From a virus (Duplodnaviria > Heunggongvirae > Uroviricota > Caudoviricetes), in IMG/VR virus record IMGVR_UViG_2648501437_000025: 38,438 bases of DNA; one strand, written 5' to 3'. Of this stretch, positions 2,962 to 19,555 are shown piece after piece. How positions within the stretch are numbered: position 1 is the stretch's first letter; the number at the start of each line of letters is the position of its first letter. Both the position numbers and the translations under genes were made by a program. The notes under the pieces were generated by a model. The model searched no databases. It had not been told where the DNA came from and saw nothing but the letters and a program-made list of their open reading frames with translations.

Positions 2962-3924
2962 TCAACTAATCGCCTCAGCACTGGCTTTTGCGATCACGGC
3001 AGCCGGGGAGTTTTTTTTTCTGGTTATCGTAGGTGCTTCATCTGCTGCGGTAATGCTCAGTTGAACCTGGATAATGTCAGTATTACCACCGTCAGGCCAT
3101 TCACCTGACACCTGAACCTTCGGGAAACTGAAAGTGTATGCCCCCTCTCCATTCGAAAGCGTGAAGCTGAACGGAACTGTTTCTCCAGTCAGTGTTTTAC
3201 TCCAGATTTCCCACGCGGCTTTAGACCATGAAAGCGTCACCGTACCGGACGGTGTAAAAGTAGTCGGAATATTTGCTCCTGCATAAGGCGAGCCAGTCCC
3301 GATACAACGCTGTGTCTGGAGTTTGTTATCGAACTGAATATCAAAACTGTCGATACAAAAACCGTTACCTCCGGCAACACCATTCAGGCTTACTGCTGAA
3401 ACCTCCTTAAACGAATAACGTAGCTTTCCTGCACTATCCACAGGTTCGCCTTTGATAAAATTCGTATCATCGGCCTTTGATTCCCAGTCCAGTCCGGCAA
3501 AGGTTACGGTCGCTGTAATATCGCCGTCGTTAGGGATCTGCATTTTCCATGAGCCAACCTGCGCTCCTCTGACGACAGAGGCAATTCCGACATCGGACGC
3601 ATAGGTCGCCAGAGAAAATGTTATTCGCTCATTCCCCATTGTCAGAGAATCGCCTGACCATTCCGCGCCGAAACAGGATGCAAGAAAATCATCATGTTGA
3701 CCCCAGCGAAATTTGGTACCAACATCACCGCCGACATCCACAGTGCCAGGCGTCGCCCCCTGAGCCATCCGGGAGCCACCAATCTCATTATTTTCGCCTT
3801 TATTCTGGGTGGGTTTTACTCCCCAGCTTGTGCGTTTTAATAAACTCCAGTCACCACTTGCTGGCGTAGTGCCTGCAACCGTCTCCCGGATAAATGCCGA
3901 GATAACCTTTGCACCTGAACTCAC
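2962..3924 (-). CDS. Major tail (tube) protein
   Basis: 320-aa Gly/Thr/Ser-rich ORF upstream of the chaperone/tape measure genes; canonical siphovirus position. Confidence 0.6.
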   Translation of the reverse strand: MSSGAKVISAFIRETVAGTTPASGDWSLLKRTSWGVKPTQNKGENNEIGGSRMAQGATPGTVDVGGDVGTKFRWGQHDDFLASCFGAEWSGDSLTMGNERITFSLATYASDVGIASVVRGAQVGSWKMQIPNDGDITATVTFAGLDWESKADDTNFIKGEPVDSAGKLRYSFKEVSAVSLNGVAGGNGFCIDSFDIQFDNKLQTQRCIGTGSPYAGANIPTTFTPSGTVTLSWSKAAWEIWSKTLTGETVPFSFTLSNGEGAYTFSFPKVQVSGEWPDGGNTDIIQVQLSITAADEAPTITRKKNSPAAVIAKASAEAIS

Positions 3925-4720: not shown

Positions 4721-5107
4721 TTACGCTCTCCTTAACTGGATTGAGTAAACTGATGCGGAAGGATCTACACTCGCTGTAATTACCTCGTATCGTTGCAACT
4801 GCCTTGATACAGGATCATAAATCTCAATAATATGGCCGACAGCGGGTTTATCCGTAACCTCGCATACCAGAGCTGTTAATTTAAGGTCACCATGCAAAAT
4901 ATTAATCCCATCAATTCTGCCCAGCTTATAACGCGTCAACACGCCTCGCCCGGTATAGGTTGCTGTGGATTCGCCGCCAGTTTCCGTCACAGGATCCCAG
5001 TTCCGGTGCGTAACGTAAGAACCAGAAAAATCACTCACGGCGTCTGCTAAATCCTCATCAAAAGCAGCGGCAACCTCTGACTGAATCTCTTCACGAAGCC
5101 CCATCAT
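4721..5107 (-). CDS. Head-tail adaptor / head closure protein
   Basis: 128-aa ORF, tightly packed with flanking genes; assignment by gene order. Confidence 0.4.
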   Translation of the reverse strand: MMGLREEIQSEVAAAFDEDLADAVSDFSGSYVTHRNWDPVTETGGESTATYTGRGVLTRYKLGRIDGINILHGDLKLTALVCEVTDKPAVGHIIEIYDPVSRQLQRYEVITASVDPSASVYSIQLRRA

Positions 5108-5499
5108 CCCCCCCTCACAACCCTGACTTGTGAGCGACTAAGTCCGTACGGTTTCAGCAGTGCTATCGCAAGCTGTAAATCGGGTTCAAGCAATGCAGTG
5201 CTGTTTGCTGGCAATTCAGCAAATGATTTCGATACACTGACCCCGTCAGCCGACACGGTTTTACTGATAACAACGCCAGAATCATTTTTCTGCTGAAACA
5301 ACTTACCGACAGAGGCAATTCTGGCTGCATATGCTCCCGCAAGTTTTACCTCTTCCGGAATACGGGATGGGTTAATTTTCAGGCCGAAGCCATTAAGCCA
5401 GGCATTAGCCATTAAAACAGCTTTATTTTTAGCGTTCTCACTCGTCCAGGCGTTCCCAAACGCATTATCAACGTCATCACAGGTCACGTAAGTGATCAT
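5104..5499 (-). CDS. Head-tail connector protein (gp6-like)
   Basis: 131-aa ORF downstream of the capsid gene; N-terminal region resembles gp6-type connector proteins from memory. Confidence 0.45.
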   Translation of the reverse strand: MITYVTCDDVDNAFGNAWTSENAKNKAVLMANAWLNGFGLKINPSRIPEEVKLAGAYAARIASVGKLFQQKNDSGVVISKTVSADGVSVSKSFAELPANSTALLEPDLQLAIALLKPYGLSRSQVRVVRGG

Positions 5500-5502
5500 G
5501 TG

Positions 5503-5727
5503 TTACTCCTGAGTTTTCCAGCCCAGAGCCTTCCAGTTGTCAACTTCATCAGGATGAACATTAGCGATAGTTGGTGCGCAGGGAAACATCTGATAATCGG
5601 TCACCATAACCACTAACTCAATTTGCGTTTTTTGTGGCTCCTGAATTTGCTCCACATTTTGCTCCACCACTGCATTTTTTTGCGCGGCTTCACGCTGTGC
5701 TCTTTGCTCTTTAGTTAATCCGGCCAT
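5503..5727 (-). CDS. Small head-associated protein (function unknown)
   Basis: 74-aa ORF directly downstream of the major capsid gene. Confidence 0.35.
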   Translation of the reverse strand: MAGLTKEQRAQREAAQKNAVVEQNVEQIQEPQKTQIELVVMVTDYQMFPCAPTIANVHPDEVDNWKALGWKTQE

Positions 5728-5769
5728 ATACCCTCCATTAAAAATGGGGCCGAAGCCCCGTTTGGATGT

Positions 5770-14802: not shown

Positions 14803-16260
14803 TTAGGAGCGCCAAAAAAAACCTGAAAACAATATAATAACAGGATAAATTTCAAGGCGACCAAGAATCATAGCTATGCACATTAAATATTTTGCAATGT
14901 CATTAAGCACTCCGAATGACGATGCAGTAGCCCCAAAACCTAATCCCATATTATTAATACATGCAGCCACTGTTGCAAATGATGTAAGAAAATCATATCC
15001 CATACCATTTAACACCAGTATAAAAAACACCGTGAAGAGAGTATAAAGAAAAAAGAAACTCCATACAGACCTCATTACACGATCTGTAACTATCTTCCCT
15101 CCTACATTTACACTCAACAACGCTCTGGGATGAGAAAGCTGGTTTATCTCGTGTTTGCTTTGTTTGAAAAGTATAAGAAATCGAAGTGACTTAATTCCAC
15201 CACAAGTTGAACCTATACATCCCCCAAAGAAACTTGACAACAGCAAAAACACTATCGTGTGCGTGGGCCAGTTTGCATAATCCTGCGTAGCTAAACCATT
15301 ATCAGTGAGCATGGAGCTGGCAAGAAAAAACGAATGAATAAAACTTCCAGGCAAGTCATACATACCTATATGCCAGACCTGGAAAGAGGTAACAATGATC
15401 ACCCCTAAGGCTATTAACAGAAAGAAACGAAGTTCAATATCTCTGATTAAAGGTTTTAACGTTTTCCTGCTAATAACAATATACCAAAGGGTGAAGTTGA
15501 AAGCCGATAGCAGGGAAAAAGAACCAGCCACCAGCTCAACCAAATAGTTATTAAAATATCCGATACTCTCGCTATGAGTTGAGAAACCACCAAGCGAAAC
15601 TGTGGATATCCCGTGACAAATAGCATCAAACAAAGGCATTCCTGCAAGTCTATAACAGACAATACAAGCAATACCTAATAAAGAATAAGTTATCCAAAGT
15701 GTCCGTGACGTATCGGCCAGGCGGGGAGTAAGTTTGTCATCCTTAAATGGCCCTGGCATTTCTGACTGATAAAGCTTTGCACCACCAATACCCAATAATG
15801 GCAATACAGCAACCGCCAGAACAATAACTCCTAAACCACCTATAAAATTTAACTGCGACCGATAGTACAAATATGCCCGAGGTAATGAACTAACATCATC
15901 AATTACAGTTGCTCCTGTTGTTGTTATTCCAGAAACCCCTTCAAACAGAGCATCAATGAACGTTAAATTAAGTTCTGAGTCAATCCATAAAGGGAATGCA
16001 CTAATAACAGAAAACAAAATCCAAAACATTACAATTATAATAAACCCATCACGGGTACGTAATTGAATGCCAGATTTCTTAGTTGTATACCACGCTCCGC
16101 CACCAATGCAAAAAAATATAACGAAAGTTATAAAGAAAACGAACAGGCTTTTTTCTTTATAAAACAATGCTACAACCATTGGTGGCAACATTGAAAGACT
16201 ATAGAGCCAAACCAGGAACCCACACATATGAGTAACAACTCTTACATGAGATGTATTCAT
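14803..16260 (-). CDS. trkG: Trk-system potassium uptake protein TrkG (TrkH family)
   Basis: Polytopic membrane protein with repeated Gly-rich selectivity-filter-like segments (GITTTGATV, GGLGV, GLGFGAT); AT-rich gene between the lysis cassette and packaging genes as in K-12 Rac; ATG at 16260 (MNTSHVRVV...). Confidence 0.9.
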   Translation of the reverse strand: MNTSHVRVVTHMCGFLVWLYSLSMLPPMVVALFYKEKSLFVFFITFVIFFCIGGGAWYTTKKSGIQLRTRDGFIIIVMFWILFSVISAFPLWIDSELNLTFIDALFEGVSGITTTGATVIDDVSSLPRAYLYYRSQLNFIGGLGVIVLAVAVLPLLGIGGAKLYQSEMPGPFKDDKLTPRLADTSRTLWITYSLLGIACIVCYRLAGMPLFDAICHGISTVSLGGFSTHSESIGYFNNYLVELVAGSFSLLSAFNFTLWYIVISRKTLKPLIRDIELRFFLLIALGVIIVTSFQVWHIGMYDLPGSFIHSFFLASSMLTDNGLATQDYANWPTHTIVFLLLSSFFGGCIGSTCGGIKSLRFLILFKQSKHEINQLSHPRALLSVNVGGKIVTDRVMRSVWSFFFLYTLFTVFFILVLNGMGYDFLTSFATVAACINNMGLGFGATASSFGVLNDIAKYLMCIAMILGRLEIYPVIILFSGFFWRS

Positions 16261-16397
16261 ATCTAAATATTCTTTCAATTATAACCACCTTGCTGCAATA
16301 TTATGATTATACTGTATAAAATTTAACTCCTCTTAGATCTTACTTCACTGTTCCTTATGAAACAATCATCAAAATGAATCATATTGTAGTTAAGATT

Positions 16398-16862: not shown

Positions 16863-17356
16863 TGCTGACCCCACAAACAGATTTCACGCTCAATCTCACG
16901 ACGAGTCATGAGACCTTTCCATTGCTTACCGCCAGCATATGTCCAGCGACGTAGCTGATCACATGCGCCTTTGATATCGCCCTGGTTTATTTTGCGAAGA
17001 AGCGTCGATGTTCTGAAATTGCCAGCACCCACGTTGTAAACGAATGAGTAAAGAGCGCCGCGCGTTGTTTCCGGTATATCGACTTTGATGTACGGGTTAA
17101 TTTGTCTGGCGACAGTGGCAAGGTCTTTATTCAAGAGTGCTTTGCATTCTGCTTTGGTATACGTTTTACCGAGCATGATGTCTTTTCCTGTATGCCCGTG
17201 ACATACAGTCCATACACCAACAATATCTTTGTATGGTATGTAGCTGACACCTTCCAGACCATCGTTACCACTTGGGCCAGTGATTAACACTGATGCTATA
17301 GCAATTGCTCCGCCACCAATAGCAGCAGCAACGGCTTTTCGTAATGATGGAGGCAT
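16859..17356 (-). CDS. SAR endolysin (phage lysozyme)
   Basis: N-terminal Gly/Ala-rich weakly hydrophobic segment ([18 protein letters not shown]) typical of signal-anchor-release endolysins, followed by a lysozyme-like domain; start overlaps the holin stop. Confidence 0.85.
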
Positions 17357-17571
17357 TATTCACCTCTCGCAGCCTTGCGCTTATCTTCTTTAATCTTGAA
17401 ATAAAGGTTTGTCAGGTACGTCAGCAGGCCAAAAACCAGACTACCCAGCACACCGATTGCAGCCCACTGTGACGGAGTTACTCTATCGAGCAACTGTAAA
17501 AACCAGTAGCCAGCACTGCCTGCGGAGGTGCCATAGGCGACACCCGTTGTTAACTTATCCATGGATTTCAT
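17356..17571 (-). CDS. Pinholin (phage 21 S-like), dual start
   Basis: [26 protein letters not shown]... closely resembles the phage 21 S pinholin from memory; two in-frame ATGs (17571 and 17562) as in holin/antiholin pairs; GAGGTGGGGG RBS. Confidence 0.85.
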
Positions 17572-17842
17572 AACCCCCACCTCGCAGATGCGGGCGCTGT
17601 GTAATGGAAACAAAAAATGGCCACCAGCGGCCCGTAAAAAACACCCCGCCAAAAGCACCGGCATCCGCAGATGCCCTTTGCGTGGCGTTATTTGATGCGC
17701 GCCAGATGTGGCGCAAAGAAATGAAATAAGACTTACCTGAAATTAAGGTTAATCTGAGGATTTAAACCATTTTTAAAGCTTAGTAATATCAACTCGTCTC
17801 CCGGAGGAGACCGATACTTACTCTTCTTCACGGACTTTGTCC

Positions 17843-17876
17843 CGCGGCGTTAATCCGACGGCCGCGCTTTTTTTTT
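17843..17876 (+). terminator. Plus-strand hairpin followed by T9 (intrinsic terminator-like) inside the non-coding leader
   Basis: cgcggc...gccgcg inverted repeat followed by nine T; no plus-strand ORF upstream. Confidence 0.4.
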
Positions 17877-17958
17877 GCGCCATATTCATCGCTAACTTAC
17901 ATGGCATTGCCACACGGGCATTATCAGTGTCCGTGTTTCTTTTTTTAGGGTTCAGAAT

Positions 17959-17984
17959 AAAAAAAACCGCCCGGTGGAGGCGGT
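17959..17984 (-). terminator. Minus-strand intrinsic terminator-like hairpin in the late leader
   Basis: Plus strand A-run then accgcc-cggtgga-ggcggt; on the minus strand a stem-loop followed by a U-run. Confidence 0.45.
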
Positions 17985-18251
17985 AAAGGATGTATTTCCA
18001 GGTTTTGCTTAATATATGATTAATCTCAATGTCATGGTGTTATTTACAACACCAGAATGATGCATCACCGACCCTGCCAGGAAATATAAAATCTCCGCCG
18101 AAAATGCACCATTCTGCTGCCGTAAAAAAATCAGCACTGCGGCTACACCCGACCCCAAATCATAGCCAGAGAACAGAATGTTTTTAACAATCTACCCCCA
18201 CGTAATAAAAAAATACGTCAGTGCCGTCACTATAAGGCGTATTTCAAATGT

Positions 18252-18326
<75 letters not shown>

Positions 18327-18332
18327 ATATGA

Positions 18333-18405
<73 letters not shown>

Positions 18406-18407
18406 AA

Positions 18408-18484
18408 TGGACCGTCACCGGGGACTCGAACCCCGCGCCATCAACTTCGAAGGCTGATGCTCTATCCGGATGAGCTAGTGACGG
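18408..18484 (-). tRNA. tRNA-Arg (anticodon TCG)
   Basis: Acceptor CCGTCAC/GTGACGG, D-arm GCTC...GAGC, anticodon stem TCAGC/GTTGA with loop CTTCGAA, T-arm CGGGG-TTCGAGT-CCCCG, encoded CCA. Confidence 0.8.
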
Positions 18485-18612
18485 TTTTATTGCCACATCC
18501 GTAACGACAGCCAGCGGGAATAATATGCATTCAGAATCAGCCGCCTTAGCTAATTGTGCAACCATCTGCTCTTTGCAAGTGCACTTAACGTCCTGCGCCA
18601 CTTTTCAGGCAT

Positions 18613-18635
18613 AAAAAAACCCGCAAAAAGCGGGC
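18613..18635 (-). terminator. tR'-like intrinsic terminator downstream of the Q gene
   Basis: Minus strand cccgc-uuuuu-gcggg followed by U7, about 100 nt downstream of the Q stop and upstream of the tRNAs and lysis genes. Confidence 0.55.
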
Positions 18636-18695
18636 TCTTTCAAATATCCATGTCTGCTATTCGCCTCGCGATACAGCTTTGCGAAGCGTACTGGA

Positions 18696-18724
18696 ATTAA
18701 AGCAGTTTGTTGCTCATTTTGCAA
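18696..18724 (-). promoter_or_regulatory. Candidate late promoter (pR'-like) between Q and the tR'-like terminator
   Basis: Minus strand TTGCAA, 17-nt spacer, TTTAAT, placed just after the Q stop codon; sequence-only prediction. Confidence 0.35.
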
Positions 18725-18731
18725 TGATTTT

Positions 18732-19268
18732 TTAAGCATAATCGAACGCTTCTCTCATAGGTGAATACAAAATGAACTCTGCAACACGCAACCACTGATC
18801 AACACGACGTCGGCATGTAATCAACGCCCACTCTGGGTACTGTTCGTTTAATAACTCGGCCATCCTTCTCTTACTCATCCCTCGCCCCACATAACGCTGA
18901 CTCAGGACATTTAGTAGTCCTGGATGATCCGCCAGAACTTCACCTATAACACTATCAATTTTTAGTGCCTCTGCATCAGTGCAGTGAGTTAACCAGCTTT
19001 TTTGCTTTCCTTCGATCATCTCACGCAAAAATGCTTCCAACTCTGGTTTATCAATTCCCGCTTTTTTCAATCTGCGCAGGGCTTCATTGATGGCTGTTTT
19101 TGTCATTTTTTGGGATGCCAGCAACTGGTTAAACATATTCCCTGACCTGCCGCCGCCAATATACGACCAGCGCCCCCACATACGTAGTTTTCCCTGAATC
19201 CAGACACTTTCCAGCGTGGTGAGACGAAGGTGTTCTCCGCTTTTTCCTGTATTCGTTGGGTAAATCAT
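18732..19268 (-). CDS. Late-gene antitermination protein Q-like
   Basis: Last gene of the nin block, directly upstream of the promoter/terminator/tRNA/lysis arrangement; ATG 19268 with AGGAGGG RBS (track ORF extends to 19388); family assigned by position and size, not a confirmed motif. Confidence 0.6.
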   Translation of the reverse strand: MIYPTNTGKSGEHLRLTTLESVWIQGKLRMWGRWSYIGGGRSGNMFNQLLASQKMTKTAINEALRRLKKAGIDKPELEAFLREMIEGKQKSWLTHCTDAEALKIDSVIGEVLADHPGLLNVLSQRYVGRGMSKRRMAELLNEQYPEWALITCRRRVDQWLRVAEFILYSPMREAFDYA

Positions 19269-19555
19269 AAATATCCCTCCTTTCTCCAGATTTCTTGTGT
19301 GCGAAAAACACCTTCTGCATGCATCAGGCGTAATTCTTCTTTGGTGTAATCGCTGGTTTTTACCCGCCCGTCGATTAAATCGTGGCACGAGCTACAGGCA
19401 ATTGCTGCCTGCATATCGTGTGGCTTTATCGCTGTTCCGCACGTACCCGCCAGTCGGTAATGAGCCAGTACAGACGTTTCAGGATTGTGATTGCAGTAGC
19501 CTGGGATTCTGACCTGGCACATCTGGCCCTGCGCCGCTTTACGTAAATTCACCAT
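19265..19555 (-). CDS. ybcO: YbcO-like (DUF1364) nin-region protein
   Basis: 96-aa protein with Cys pattern CQVRIPGYCNHNPETSVLAHYRL...CSSCHDLIDGR, closely resembling E. coli prophage YbcO as I remember it. Confidence 0.7.
   Translation of the reverse strand: MVNLRKAAQGQMCQVRIPGYCNHNPETSVLAHYRLAGTCGTAIKPHDMQAAIACSSCHDLIDGRVKTSDYTKEELRLMHAEGVFRTQEIWRKEGYL

Follow-up and report, generated by a model that had tools for sequence, protein, structure and literature searches.

The classical moron of lambdoid phages, for which Juhala et al. 2000 are cited in PMC4104026, is an insert composed of a promoter, a gene, and a terminator that lies downstream of PR'. At the same site, convergent small regulatory RNA (sRNA) genes have been described in eight prophages of the strain Sakai (Tree et al. 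2014, PMC4104026). In the enteropathogenic Escherichia coli (EPEC) strain E2348/69, the RNA PasA is located ~214 nt upstream of a holin gene and antisense to the late genes, and its major (85 nt) and minor (236 nt) 3' ends lie at tandem terminators (Pearl Mizrahi et al. 2021, PMC8550237; Zhu, Shabalina & Storz 2026, bioRxiv 10.64898/2026.05.13.724894). In pathogenic E. coli, host regulation is rewired by the prophage sRNAs encoded here: AgvB is an antagonist of GcvB and AsxR one of FnrS, and numerous Hfq partners are known for the Pas RNAs. The sRNAs catalogued so far come from enterohaemorrhagic (EHEC) and EPEC strains. Here, we analyse a gap of ~680 bp (positions 17572-18251) that separates a tRNA-Gly gene from a P21-type holin gene in the IMG/VR virus record IMGVR_UViG_2648501437_000025; the whole stretch of 38,438 nucleotides is referred to as the window, and it is a Rac-like lambdoid prophage with its late operon on the minus strand. 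The gap is a real, structured, and conserved non-coding module; with a probability of about 0.62, it consists of an sRNA gene that is directed against the late operon, faces a terminator-capped RNA of the late strand, and most likely has a product acting in trans.

The gap occupies the PR' moron site, with Q/PR' upstream, tRNA genes in between, and lysis genes downstream. Like STnc100 (EcOnc27)/AsxR, AgvB, and EcOnc03 (RF02076, RF02703, RF02702; PMC4104026), the module follows Q/PR' and the tRNAs and precedes the late genes. Furthermore, its late-sense and antisense units end tail-to-tail as in the EHEC pairs: in the Sakai prophage Sp5, the geometry of which was checked, the late-sense STnc100 ends 2 nt from the 3' end of the antisense AsxR, and 11 nt separate the two ends here. 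The antisense member also has an intrinsic terminator and its own promoter (predicted in the case of the window), and, as in the EHEC sRNA family, a constant 3' part is combined with a variable 5' part. In contrast to AsxR and AgvB, which measure 51-60 nt and carry a variable 5' end of 14-18 nt, the RNA of the window is predicted (as is its 5' end) to be ~81 nt long with a 5' hairpin and an 18-nt linker, and it does not match the covariance models of those families with their conserved 3' region of ~42 nt. The window also differs from the EHEC pairs in having two tandem antisense terminators and from the EHEC moron sites in having no cargo coding sequence (CDS). Unlike STnc100 (206 nt), the late-sense member is built from a long hairpin and a cassette of ~50 nt and has no match to RF02076. 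The features of the module are the following, with coordinates, strand, and description.

17761-17789, plus strand: promoter-like box, composed of a -35 element TTTAAA (17761-17766), a 17-bp spacer, and a -10 element TAATAT (17784-17789)
17796-17876, plus strand: predicted sRNA of ~81 nt, antisense to the late operon
17795-17813, plus strand: 5' hairpin of the predicted RNA, starting 6-7 nt past the -10 element
17814-17831, plus strand: CU-rich single-stranded linker AUACUUACUCUUCUUCAC
17832-17842, plus strand: small hairpin GGAC-UUU-GUCC
17843-17876, plus strand: terminator T1, with a stem at 17843-17867 (6 G-C pairs) and U9 at 17868-17876, read from the sequence
17912-17946, plus strand: second terminator T2, with a stem at 17912-17936 followed by TTCTTTTTTT up to 17946; match of the terminator scan, -14.5 kcal/mol, z = -3.9
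17958-17984, minus strand: late-strand terminator T3, ACCGCCU-CCACC-GGGCGGU followed by U8; match of the terminator scan, z = -3.05
17985-18035, minus strand: short "type A" cassette before T3, ending in UUGAGAUUAAUCAUAUAUUAAGCAAAACCUGGAAAUACAUCCUUU, largely unstructured
18043-18126, minus strand: long imperfect hairpin of 84 nt with ~33 pairs, -44.4 kcal/mol, z = -5.74
18131-18251, minus strand: spacer between tRNA-Gly and the long hairpin, with the invariant box CATTCTGTTCTCTGGCTATGATTTG running from 18180 down to 18156

PasA provides the closest counterpart in layout. The plus-strand unit of the window is likewise antisense, lies ~225 nt from the holin start, and has intrinsic terminators in the T1/T2 arrangement; PasA/PasC and the unit of the window also resemble each other in having tRNAs, RusA, TerB, and a holin/lysozyme operon nearby. 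Unlike in layout, there is no sequence similarity between PasA and the plus-strand RNA (score of 17-18 versus shuffle means of 14.6-18), and the comparison with PasC was not above chance under strict scoring. With the classical moron the module shares the character of an autonomous and exchangeable unit between late genes, with its own promoter and terminator and presumably independent of Q. It differs from the moron as outlined in the source cited above in that it encodes no protein, is oriented against the late operon, and is linked to tRNA genes instead of a cargo CDS. The architecture is therefore known from EHEC and EPEC, whereas the sequence family matches no Rfam family and no searchable paper. 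Two sensitive Rfam scans of the window and a gathering-threshold scan of 15 related loci returned only tRNAs and unrelated phage RNAs at threshold, and AsxR, AgvB, STnc100, and Esr41 gave no match at E <= 10 in the sensitive scan of 17560-18260. As a control, the same Rfam library finds AsxR at 88 bits in Sakai. Matches to miRNA-like families merely reflect the long hairpin. Searches of the literature by sequence and by locus names found no mention of the plus-strand family, and the EcOnc catalogue of Sakai holds no matching probe or sequence.

The evidence for the plus-strand unit is mainly comparative. An initial annotation of the window, made from its letters alone, had pointed to a plus-strand hairpin followed by nine T residues and to a minus-strand hairpin followed by a U-run, and both are located where they had been placed: the former is T1, the latter is T3, which is listed by the terminator scan and folds at -11.1 kcal/mol. 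T1 itself is not listed by the scan, as its loop and bulge geometry may fall outside the scan rule; it is taken as real because its stem is conserved (invariant in 26 distinct relatives) and not because of its folding energy. The predicted RNA (17796-17876) folds into a three-part shape of 5' hairpin, small hairpin, and terminator (z = -2.0), and RNAalifold gives the same three helices for the alignment A2, which comprises those 26 relatives and was analysed together with slid-partner controls. All seven pairs of the 5' hairpin vary in A2, two of them with compensatory double changes (C-G to U-A in six sequences, U-A to C-G in eight), and 94% of the cells are still paired compared with 39-50% in the slid controls. 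The linker, the small hairpin, and the terminator are nearly invariant. The fold is moreover specific to the plus strand because it includes U-G pairs (9-22 in 10 sequences, 63-69 in all), which turn into mismatches on the opposite strand.

A conserved stretch, AATTAAGGTTAATCTGAGGA, lies directly 5' of the promoter-like box. The -35 element is invariant in nearly all family contexts, the exceptions being CTTAAA in two genome loci and TTCAAA in Escherichia albertii, and as the -10 element phage copies have TAATAT or TAGTAT, K-12 has TATGAT, and E. albertii has TATACT; the spacer measures 17 bp in the phage-type, the K-12-type, and the E. albertii-type copies alike, three lineages that are divergent from one another. 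The common features of the family can thus be listed as the box AATTAAGGTTAATCTGAGGATTTAAACC-N-TTAGTAATAT (-35 TTTAAA, 17-bp spacer, -10 TAATAT/TAGTAT), the 5' hairpin, the near-invariant linker GAURCUUAUKMUUCUUCAY, the invariant GGAC-UUU-GUCC hairpin, and the CGCGGC/GCCGCG terminator with its U-run. The linker is also able to pair with the purine-rich 3' arm of the 5' hairpin of the same RNA. A 7-codon open reading frame (ORF), MDFVPRL, occurs in K-12 and some variants and was rejected as a candidate, its ATG being CAC in the window and in others.

The second terminator, T2, starts 35 nt after the U-run of T1 and is made up of ACACGGGCA-UUAUCAG-UGUCCGUGU plus UUCUUUUUUU. Its stem is kept through G-U and compensatory changes (GGGCA/TGTCC, GGGTA/TGCCC, GGACA/TGTCC, and CGAGTAT/ATGCTCG), and these pairing changes work on the plus strand only. 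A promoter of its own for a short T2-terminated RNA was considered and rejected, as no conserved -10/-35 elements are found between T1 and T2. For that reason, T2 is most simply read as a back-up terminator or as the terminator of a long isoform. T2, the long minus-strand hairpin (18126-18043), and the late-strand leader hairpins described below had been missed by the initial annotation, which had also not seen that the minus-strand terminator is part of a late-sense unit downstream of the tRNAs. Within 17300-18800, five terminator-like sites were found, compared with 1.7 +/- 1.4 in shuffles.

Alignment to related prophages had been proposed with the initial annotation, and it reveals that the site elsewhere holds the same non-coding block and not a gene remnant. 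A search with a 17-mer from the small hairpin yielded 75 IMG/VR prophage loci in 43 distinct contexts, and the non-coding block recurs in ~60 prophage loci with different holin genes alongside. A BLAST comparison with 80 related loci shows that most of them keep the tRNAs and the spacer together with the long hairpin, T2, and the plus-strand unit, and that the adjoining holin usually differs. The shared block spans from ~17605/17691 to 18484: homology breaks off on the left at 17605 (23 loci) or 17691 (24 loci) and on the right at T1, inside T3, or in the tRNAs. Every module locus from IMG/VR that was scanned with Rfam has tRNAs at a distance of a few hundred bp from the plus-strand unit and on the strand opposite to it. 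Overall identity to the best E. coli matches is ~90%, with an uneven conservation; the stretch 17820-18030, which contains the three terminators, is ~100% identical to strain H2, and the flanks are ~85% identical. Among 5,426 complete E. coli genomes, ~120 carry the phage-type unit, including SE11, ATCC 8739, 042, and many enterotoxigenic (ETEC) strains, and in these 120 genomes it carries either no annotation or that of a hypothetical protein, never that of an RNA. When a species-level genome collection was scanned with the 17-mer, real matches were found only in Escherichia and Shigella, and the remaining ones were mostly chance matches in unrelated phyla. The module extends the architecture known from EHEC and EPEC to lambdoid prophages, Rac-like ones among them, of commensal, ETEC, and enteroaggregative strains, and the seemingly empty spacer between tRNA and holin genes turns out to be a tRNA-plus-sRNA cassette, the linked parts of which pass between phages in one piece.

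Two side observations concern the integrity of this block. In the phage SerU-LTIIb (KU052038.1), the tRNA-to-holin block is present as a tandem duplicate (3276-3842 and 4988-5748) with a partial duplication of the holin; both copies lie between tRNAs and holin, and the LT-IIb toxin genes follow the endolysin gene outside of the site. In E. coli SE11 (related locus L003, 3457-3514), a truncated or hybrid tRNA is found in which the 3' part of tRNA-Gly is fused to the 5' part of tRNA-Arg, apparently as the result of a deletion between phage tRNA genes. The non-coding module beside it is intact and 96-98% identical to the window.

A paralogue of the T1 region (89% match) is located in the spacer between yodB and serU in 5,347 of the 5,426 complete E. 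coli genomes (~98%), for example at ~2043040-2043181 (+) of MG1655 and at 2405-2550 of the E. coli DH1 locus L002. The MG1655 annotation shows nothing over this paralogue. The K-12 copy shares the promoter box, the 3' hairpin, and the terminator with the window but differs from it in the 5' hairpin and the linker. A published K-12 Term-seq data set lists an orphan RNA 3' end at 2043181 (+) (Adams et al. 2021, PMC7815308, Supplementary file 1, sheet LB 2.0). Comparison of the flanking sequence places this end, recorded in LB medium at an optical density of 2.0, on the last U of the paralogue's terminator. An RNA 3' end thus maps on the U-tract of the family terminator in vivo for the K-12 copy, and it is the end of an RNA, not its start, that is located in this way. 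A further, divergent copy was observed in E. albertii NBRC 107761 (locus L108, ~3520-3700), 600 bp from trkG and in divergent orientation to it, as in the window. Its 3' module is that of the other copies, its 5' hairpin and linker differ from theirs, and a -35/17/-10 box of its own is present, with no tRNAs or lysis genes nearby; the locus looks like a decayed Rac-like remnant that has retained the sRNA and trkG.

As the phage, K-12, and E. albertii copies share only the 3' module and the promoter box, the family is seen as a constant 3' scaffold joined to variable 5' parts. The persistence of the K-12 and E. albertii orphans away from lysis genes argues for a function that is independent of the cis context. 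We tentatively go one step further and suggest, as a possibility to which we give somewhat less than even odds, that the plus-strand unit represents an undescribed family of phage-borne regulatory RNAs with a constant 3' scaffold (the GGACUUUGUCC hairpin and the CGCGGC/GCCGCG terminator) and exchangeable 5' hairpin/seed modules, one member of which has been domesticated between yodB and serU. If so, the yodB-serU copy, present in ~98% of E. coli/Shigella including K-12, would be a genuine, unannotated stationary-phase sRNA gene of phage origin. In any case, it is an unannotated sRNA candidate in the E. coli core genome, the 3' end of which is already mapped.

On the late strand, the T3 stem ACCGCCTCCACCGGGCGGT extends from 17984 to 17966 and is followed by T8 down to 17958. 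T3 and T2 are convergent, their T-runs ending at 17958 and 17946 with 11 nt in between. The CCGCC-N(6-8)-GGCGG stem and the T-run of T3 are kept in nearly all of 34 variants, and the loop varies. The cassette that precedes T3 (~50 nt here) is swapped elsewhere for a structured one of ~160 nt or for one of ~500 nt with an extra tRNA-like gene, and the type A cassette of the window is nearly identical in 12 distinct variants. No conserved promoter was found for the type A cassette. A scan match for a promoter that would produce an independent late-sense RNA (TTAAAA-17-TATGAT) is unsupported, as TATGAT is kept among 13 variants and the -35 element and the spacing are not. At 17960-18029 of the minus strand, CyaR/RyeE (RF00112) reached 23 bits, below its cutoff of 47. 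The ~160-nt structured cassette, which contains GGGAGGCACCCGACACC, was observed in the related locus L012 (1332-1531) and also in L013, L006, L025, L046, and L070. In a sister locus it scores 19.9 bits against STnc100 (cutoff 47, E = 0.062), and it may be a distant STnc100/PasD relative.

The long hairpin is found in nearly all loci that carry the module. In the alignment A3, which comprises 20 variants of it, 7 of the 33 predicted pairs show compensatory double changes and almost none are broken, and the fold is specific to the minus strand because many of the pairs are G-U on that strand only. The box CATTCTGTTCTCTGGCTATGATTTG in the adjacent spacer is near-invariant (single substitutions in 3 of 13 variants), and its flanks carry indels. 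The CATTCTG of this box could pair with a CAGAATG in the 5' arm of the long hairpin, a complementarity that suggests an alternative structure. A separate resemblance was noted between the late-sense T3 element (17958-18032, minus strand) and PasA, the shared pattern being CAUAUA..AAGC..AAC.UG.GAARUACAUC…CUCCACCG. The resemblance is marginal (score of 22 versus 13.7 +/- 2.1, with 3 of 500 shuffles as high and an nhmmer profile E = 0.064) and significant only with gap-lenient scoring, and the T3 element differs from PasA in its orientation relative to the late genes.

Taken as a whole, the module is best read as a compact unit, found at the moron site that separates the Q/PR' region from the lysis cassette and inherited together with the phage tRNA genes. 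Its plus-strand part would be an sRNA gene with a weak sigma-70-type promoter and an ~81-nt product, presumably expressed constitutively, in which the open, CU-rich linker of ~18 nt is the probable pairing region. An intrinsic terminator with a long U tail is the usual Hfq-binding 3' end, and the product may accordingly be Hfq-dependent. Its minus-strand part would form the 3' trailer of the tRNA/late transcript, consisting of the long hairpin, the exchangeable cassette, and T3. In the lysogen, T1, T2, and T3 together with tR' and the leader hairpins would keep transcription from passing between the tRNAs, the sRNA, and the lysis genes, and after induction the Q-modified polymerase would read through the terminators. 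By analogy to the Hfq-bound AgvB, AsxR, and Pas RNAs, the plus-strand RNA most likely acts in trans, through the linker, on putative target mRNAs or sRNAs of the host or phage. The initial annotation had suggested an antisense or small regulatory RNA with its end at the plus-strand terminator, and this gains comparative support from the promoter-like box, the compensatory 5' hairpin, the chromosomal orphans, and the K-12 3' end, with the RNA of the window itself still at the level of a prediction. Likewise, the covariance and structure search that it had proposed came out in favour of a conserved structure and yielded no Rfam family.

Several points weigh against an sRNA gene. The RNA of the window is predicted from sequence, as is that of every phage-type copy, and no published record for the phage-type unit was found in Hfq-CRAC (cross-linking and analysis of cDNA) or RIL-seq (sequencing of interacting RNAs joined by ligation) data. 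The promoter-like box matches the consensus at 8 of 12 positions and was not flagged by the scan, and the T1 hairpin alone is no more stable than its shuffles (z = -0.05). The covariation is modest, with two compensatory pairs among closely related sequences, and on two of five whole-structure measures the shuffle control equals the A2 alignment. A pattern search of the window for sites complementary to the linker, and hence for a trans target, retrieved only its own antisense locus, as chance predicts. Moreover, the phage-type unit appears to be absent from O157:H7, judging from the low genome count (120). With respect to the K-12 copy, the mapped 3' end has a modest read count (2,241) in one of three conditions only and could be the end of a long yodB 3' untranslated region instead of an independent sRNA, and the minimum-energy fold of this copy lacks the three-part shape, as its 5' end pairs with the terminator sequence.

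The strongest competitor of a trans-acting sRNA is a brake on lysis that operates in cis. Here, the plus-strand RNA would pair with a perfectly complementary stretch of the late transcript ~240 nt upstream of the holin start, RNase III would cleave the duplex, and interference from convergent transcription would be added, so that leaky read-through past tR' and T3 in the lysogen would yield no holin or endolysin. Antisense control of lambdoid late and lysis-lysogeny genes has precedents in OOP and PaQ of lambda and in sar of P22. The RNA is indeed fully antisense to the late transcript and is always placed between tRNAs and holin in intact prophages, its cis locus is the only complementary site in the window, and the layered terminators indicate a pressure to silence the lysis genes. 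However, the unit is retained in two chromosomal remnants that have neither a holin nor a late transcript, and an RNA 3' end is still found for the K-12 copy. The adjoining holin also differs between loci, the paired stretch is far from the ribosome-binding site, and for AgvB, AsxR, and Pas at the same position action in trans or partners in trans have been described (PMC4104026, PMC8550237). The trans role is favoured over a purely cis-antisense one because the orphan copies persist without any lysis gene, and as a full explanation the brake is rather unlikely; the two modes are nevertheless compatible, and action in cis keeps an appreciable weight.

Less probable still is that the hairpins serve only as insulators, that is, as boundary terminators of mosaic modules in both directions, with short RNAs as functionless by-products. 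This would fit the homology blocks, the ends of which fall at T1, within T3, and on the leader hairpins, the retention of T3 while the preceding cassette is swapped, and the fact that morons are typically flanked by terminators. Yet a plain terminator needs neither a promoter-like box at a fixed distance nor a near-invariant linker of 18 nt nor a 5' hairpin with compensatory changes, and it remains unexplained why the whole unit of ~130 bp, including the promoter, was kept in the K-12 and E. albertii remnants.

The initial annotation had also considered that the gap might be the leftover of a deleted cargo gene. It had correctly noted that the gap contains no ORF of 60 aa or more: every ORF overlapping it has at most 54 aa, save for one of 102 aa (17356-17664, minus strand), which arises when the holin frame is lengthened to reach an in-frame ATG further upstream, and relatives annotate a holin of 71 aa. 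The only CDS annotated over the block in relatives is a 103-aa "hypothetical protein" of E. coli H2, and it passes through three terminators and is split in the window into pieces of 49 and 31 aa by indels in homopolymer runs. In H2 (locus L001, 2533-2658 and 2757-3068) and in many RefSeq genomes, "hypothetical protein" CDSs were observed over the homologous non-coding block. These are probably spurious gene calls, as they cross intrinsic terminators and their reading frames are not conserved, and such annotations can be corrected accordingly. The comparison was made at the DNA and RNA level, and protein-level evidence was not sought as no ORF is conserved. Descent from a deleted or pseudogenised moron cargo gene, for which one could cite the RefSeq CDSs (such as the 103 aa in H2) and the porin, Stx, or esterase genes that other lambdoid phages carry in the general site, is very improbable, since the H2 ORF crosses the three terminators and is broken in the window, the variation over ~60 loci preserves RNA pairing and not a reading frame, conservation is highest in the hairpins and the promoter box (~100% versus ~85% in the flanks), and the LT-IIb phage has its toxin cargo elsewhere while the block is intact and present twice.

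The surroundings of the gap comprise the following features.

18732-19388: Q-family antiterminator gene (DUF1133, E = 1.8e-101; Phage_antitermQ, 29 bits versus a cutoff of 26)
~18634-18613: tR'-like hairpin followed by T7, read from the sequence
18252-18484, minus strand: tRNA-Gly(UCC), tRNA-Thr(UGU), and tRNA-Arg(UCG), identified with ARAGORN and Rfam
18252-18326, minus strand: tRNA-Gly, which borders the gap
17605-17690, minus strand: holin-leader sub-module with terminator-like hairpins, matches of the terminator scan
17675-17660, minus strand: leader hairpin GGCATCTGCGGATGCC
17632-17619, minus strand: leader hairpin GGCCGCTGGTGGCC followed by AUUUUUUGUU, with a T-run to ~17609
17356-17571, minus strand: P21-type holin (Pfam PF04971, E = 4.8e-35)

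Between the Q gene and the tR'-like terminator, positions 18614-18687 (minus strand) give a weak IsrK-like match (19.8 bits versus a cutoff of 50), and full matches to IsrK (~75 bits) and to a C4 antisense RNA were observed at the equivalent place in the related loci L018 and L059. The stretch 18614-18687 may be the short transcript between PR' and tR', analogous to StxS. Downstream of the gap, the holin is followed by a lysozyme gene, an Rz-like gene, and trkG, in this order. As in the Rac prophage of K-12, trkG (14803-16278, minus strand) lies directly 3' of the Rz-like lysis gene. The prophage of the window retains its tRNAs along with the genes for Q, holin, and lysozyme, all of which K-12 Rac has presumably lost. 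Finally, positions 17575-17625 in the holin leader match several lambdoid phages, and one of these records labels the site as "terminator".

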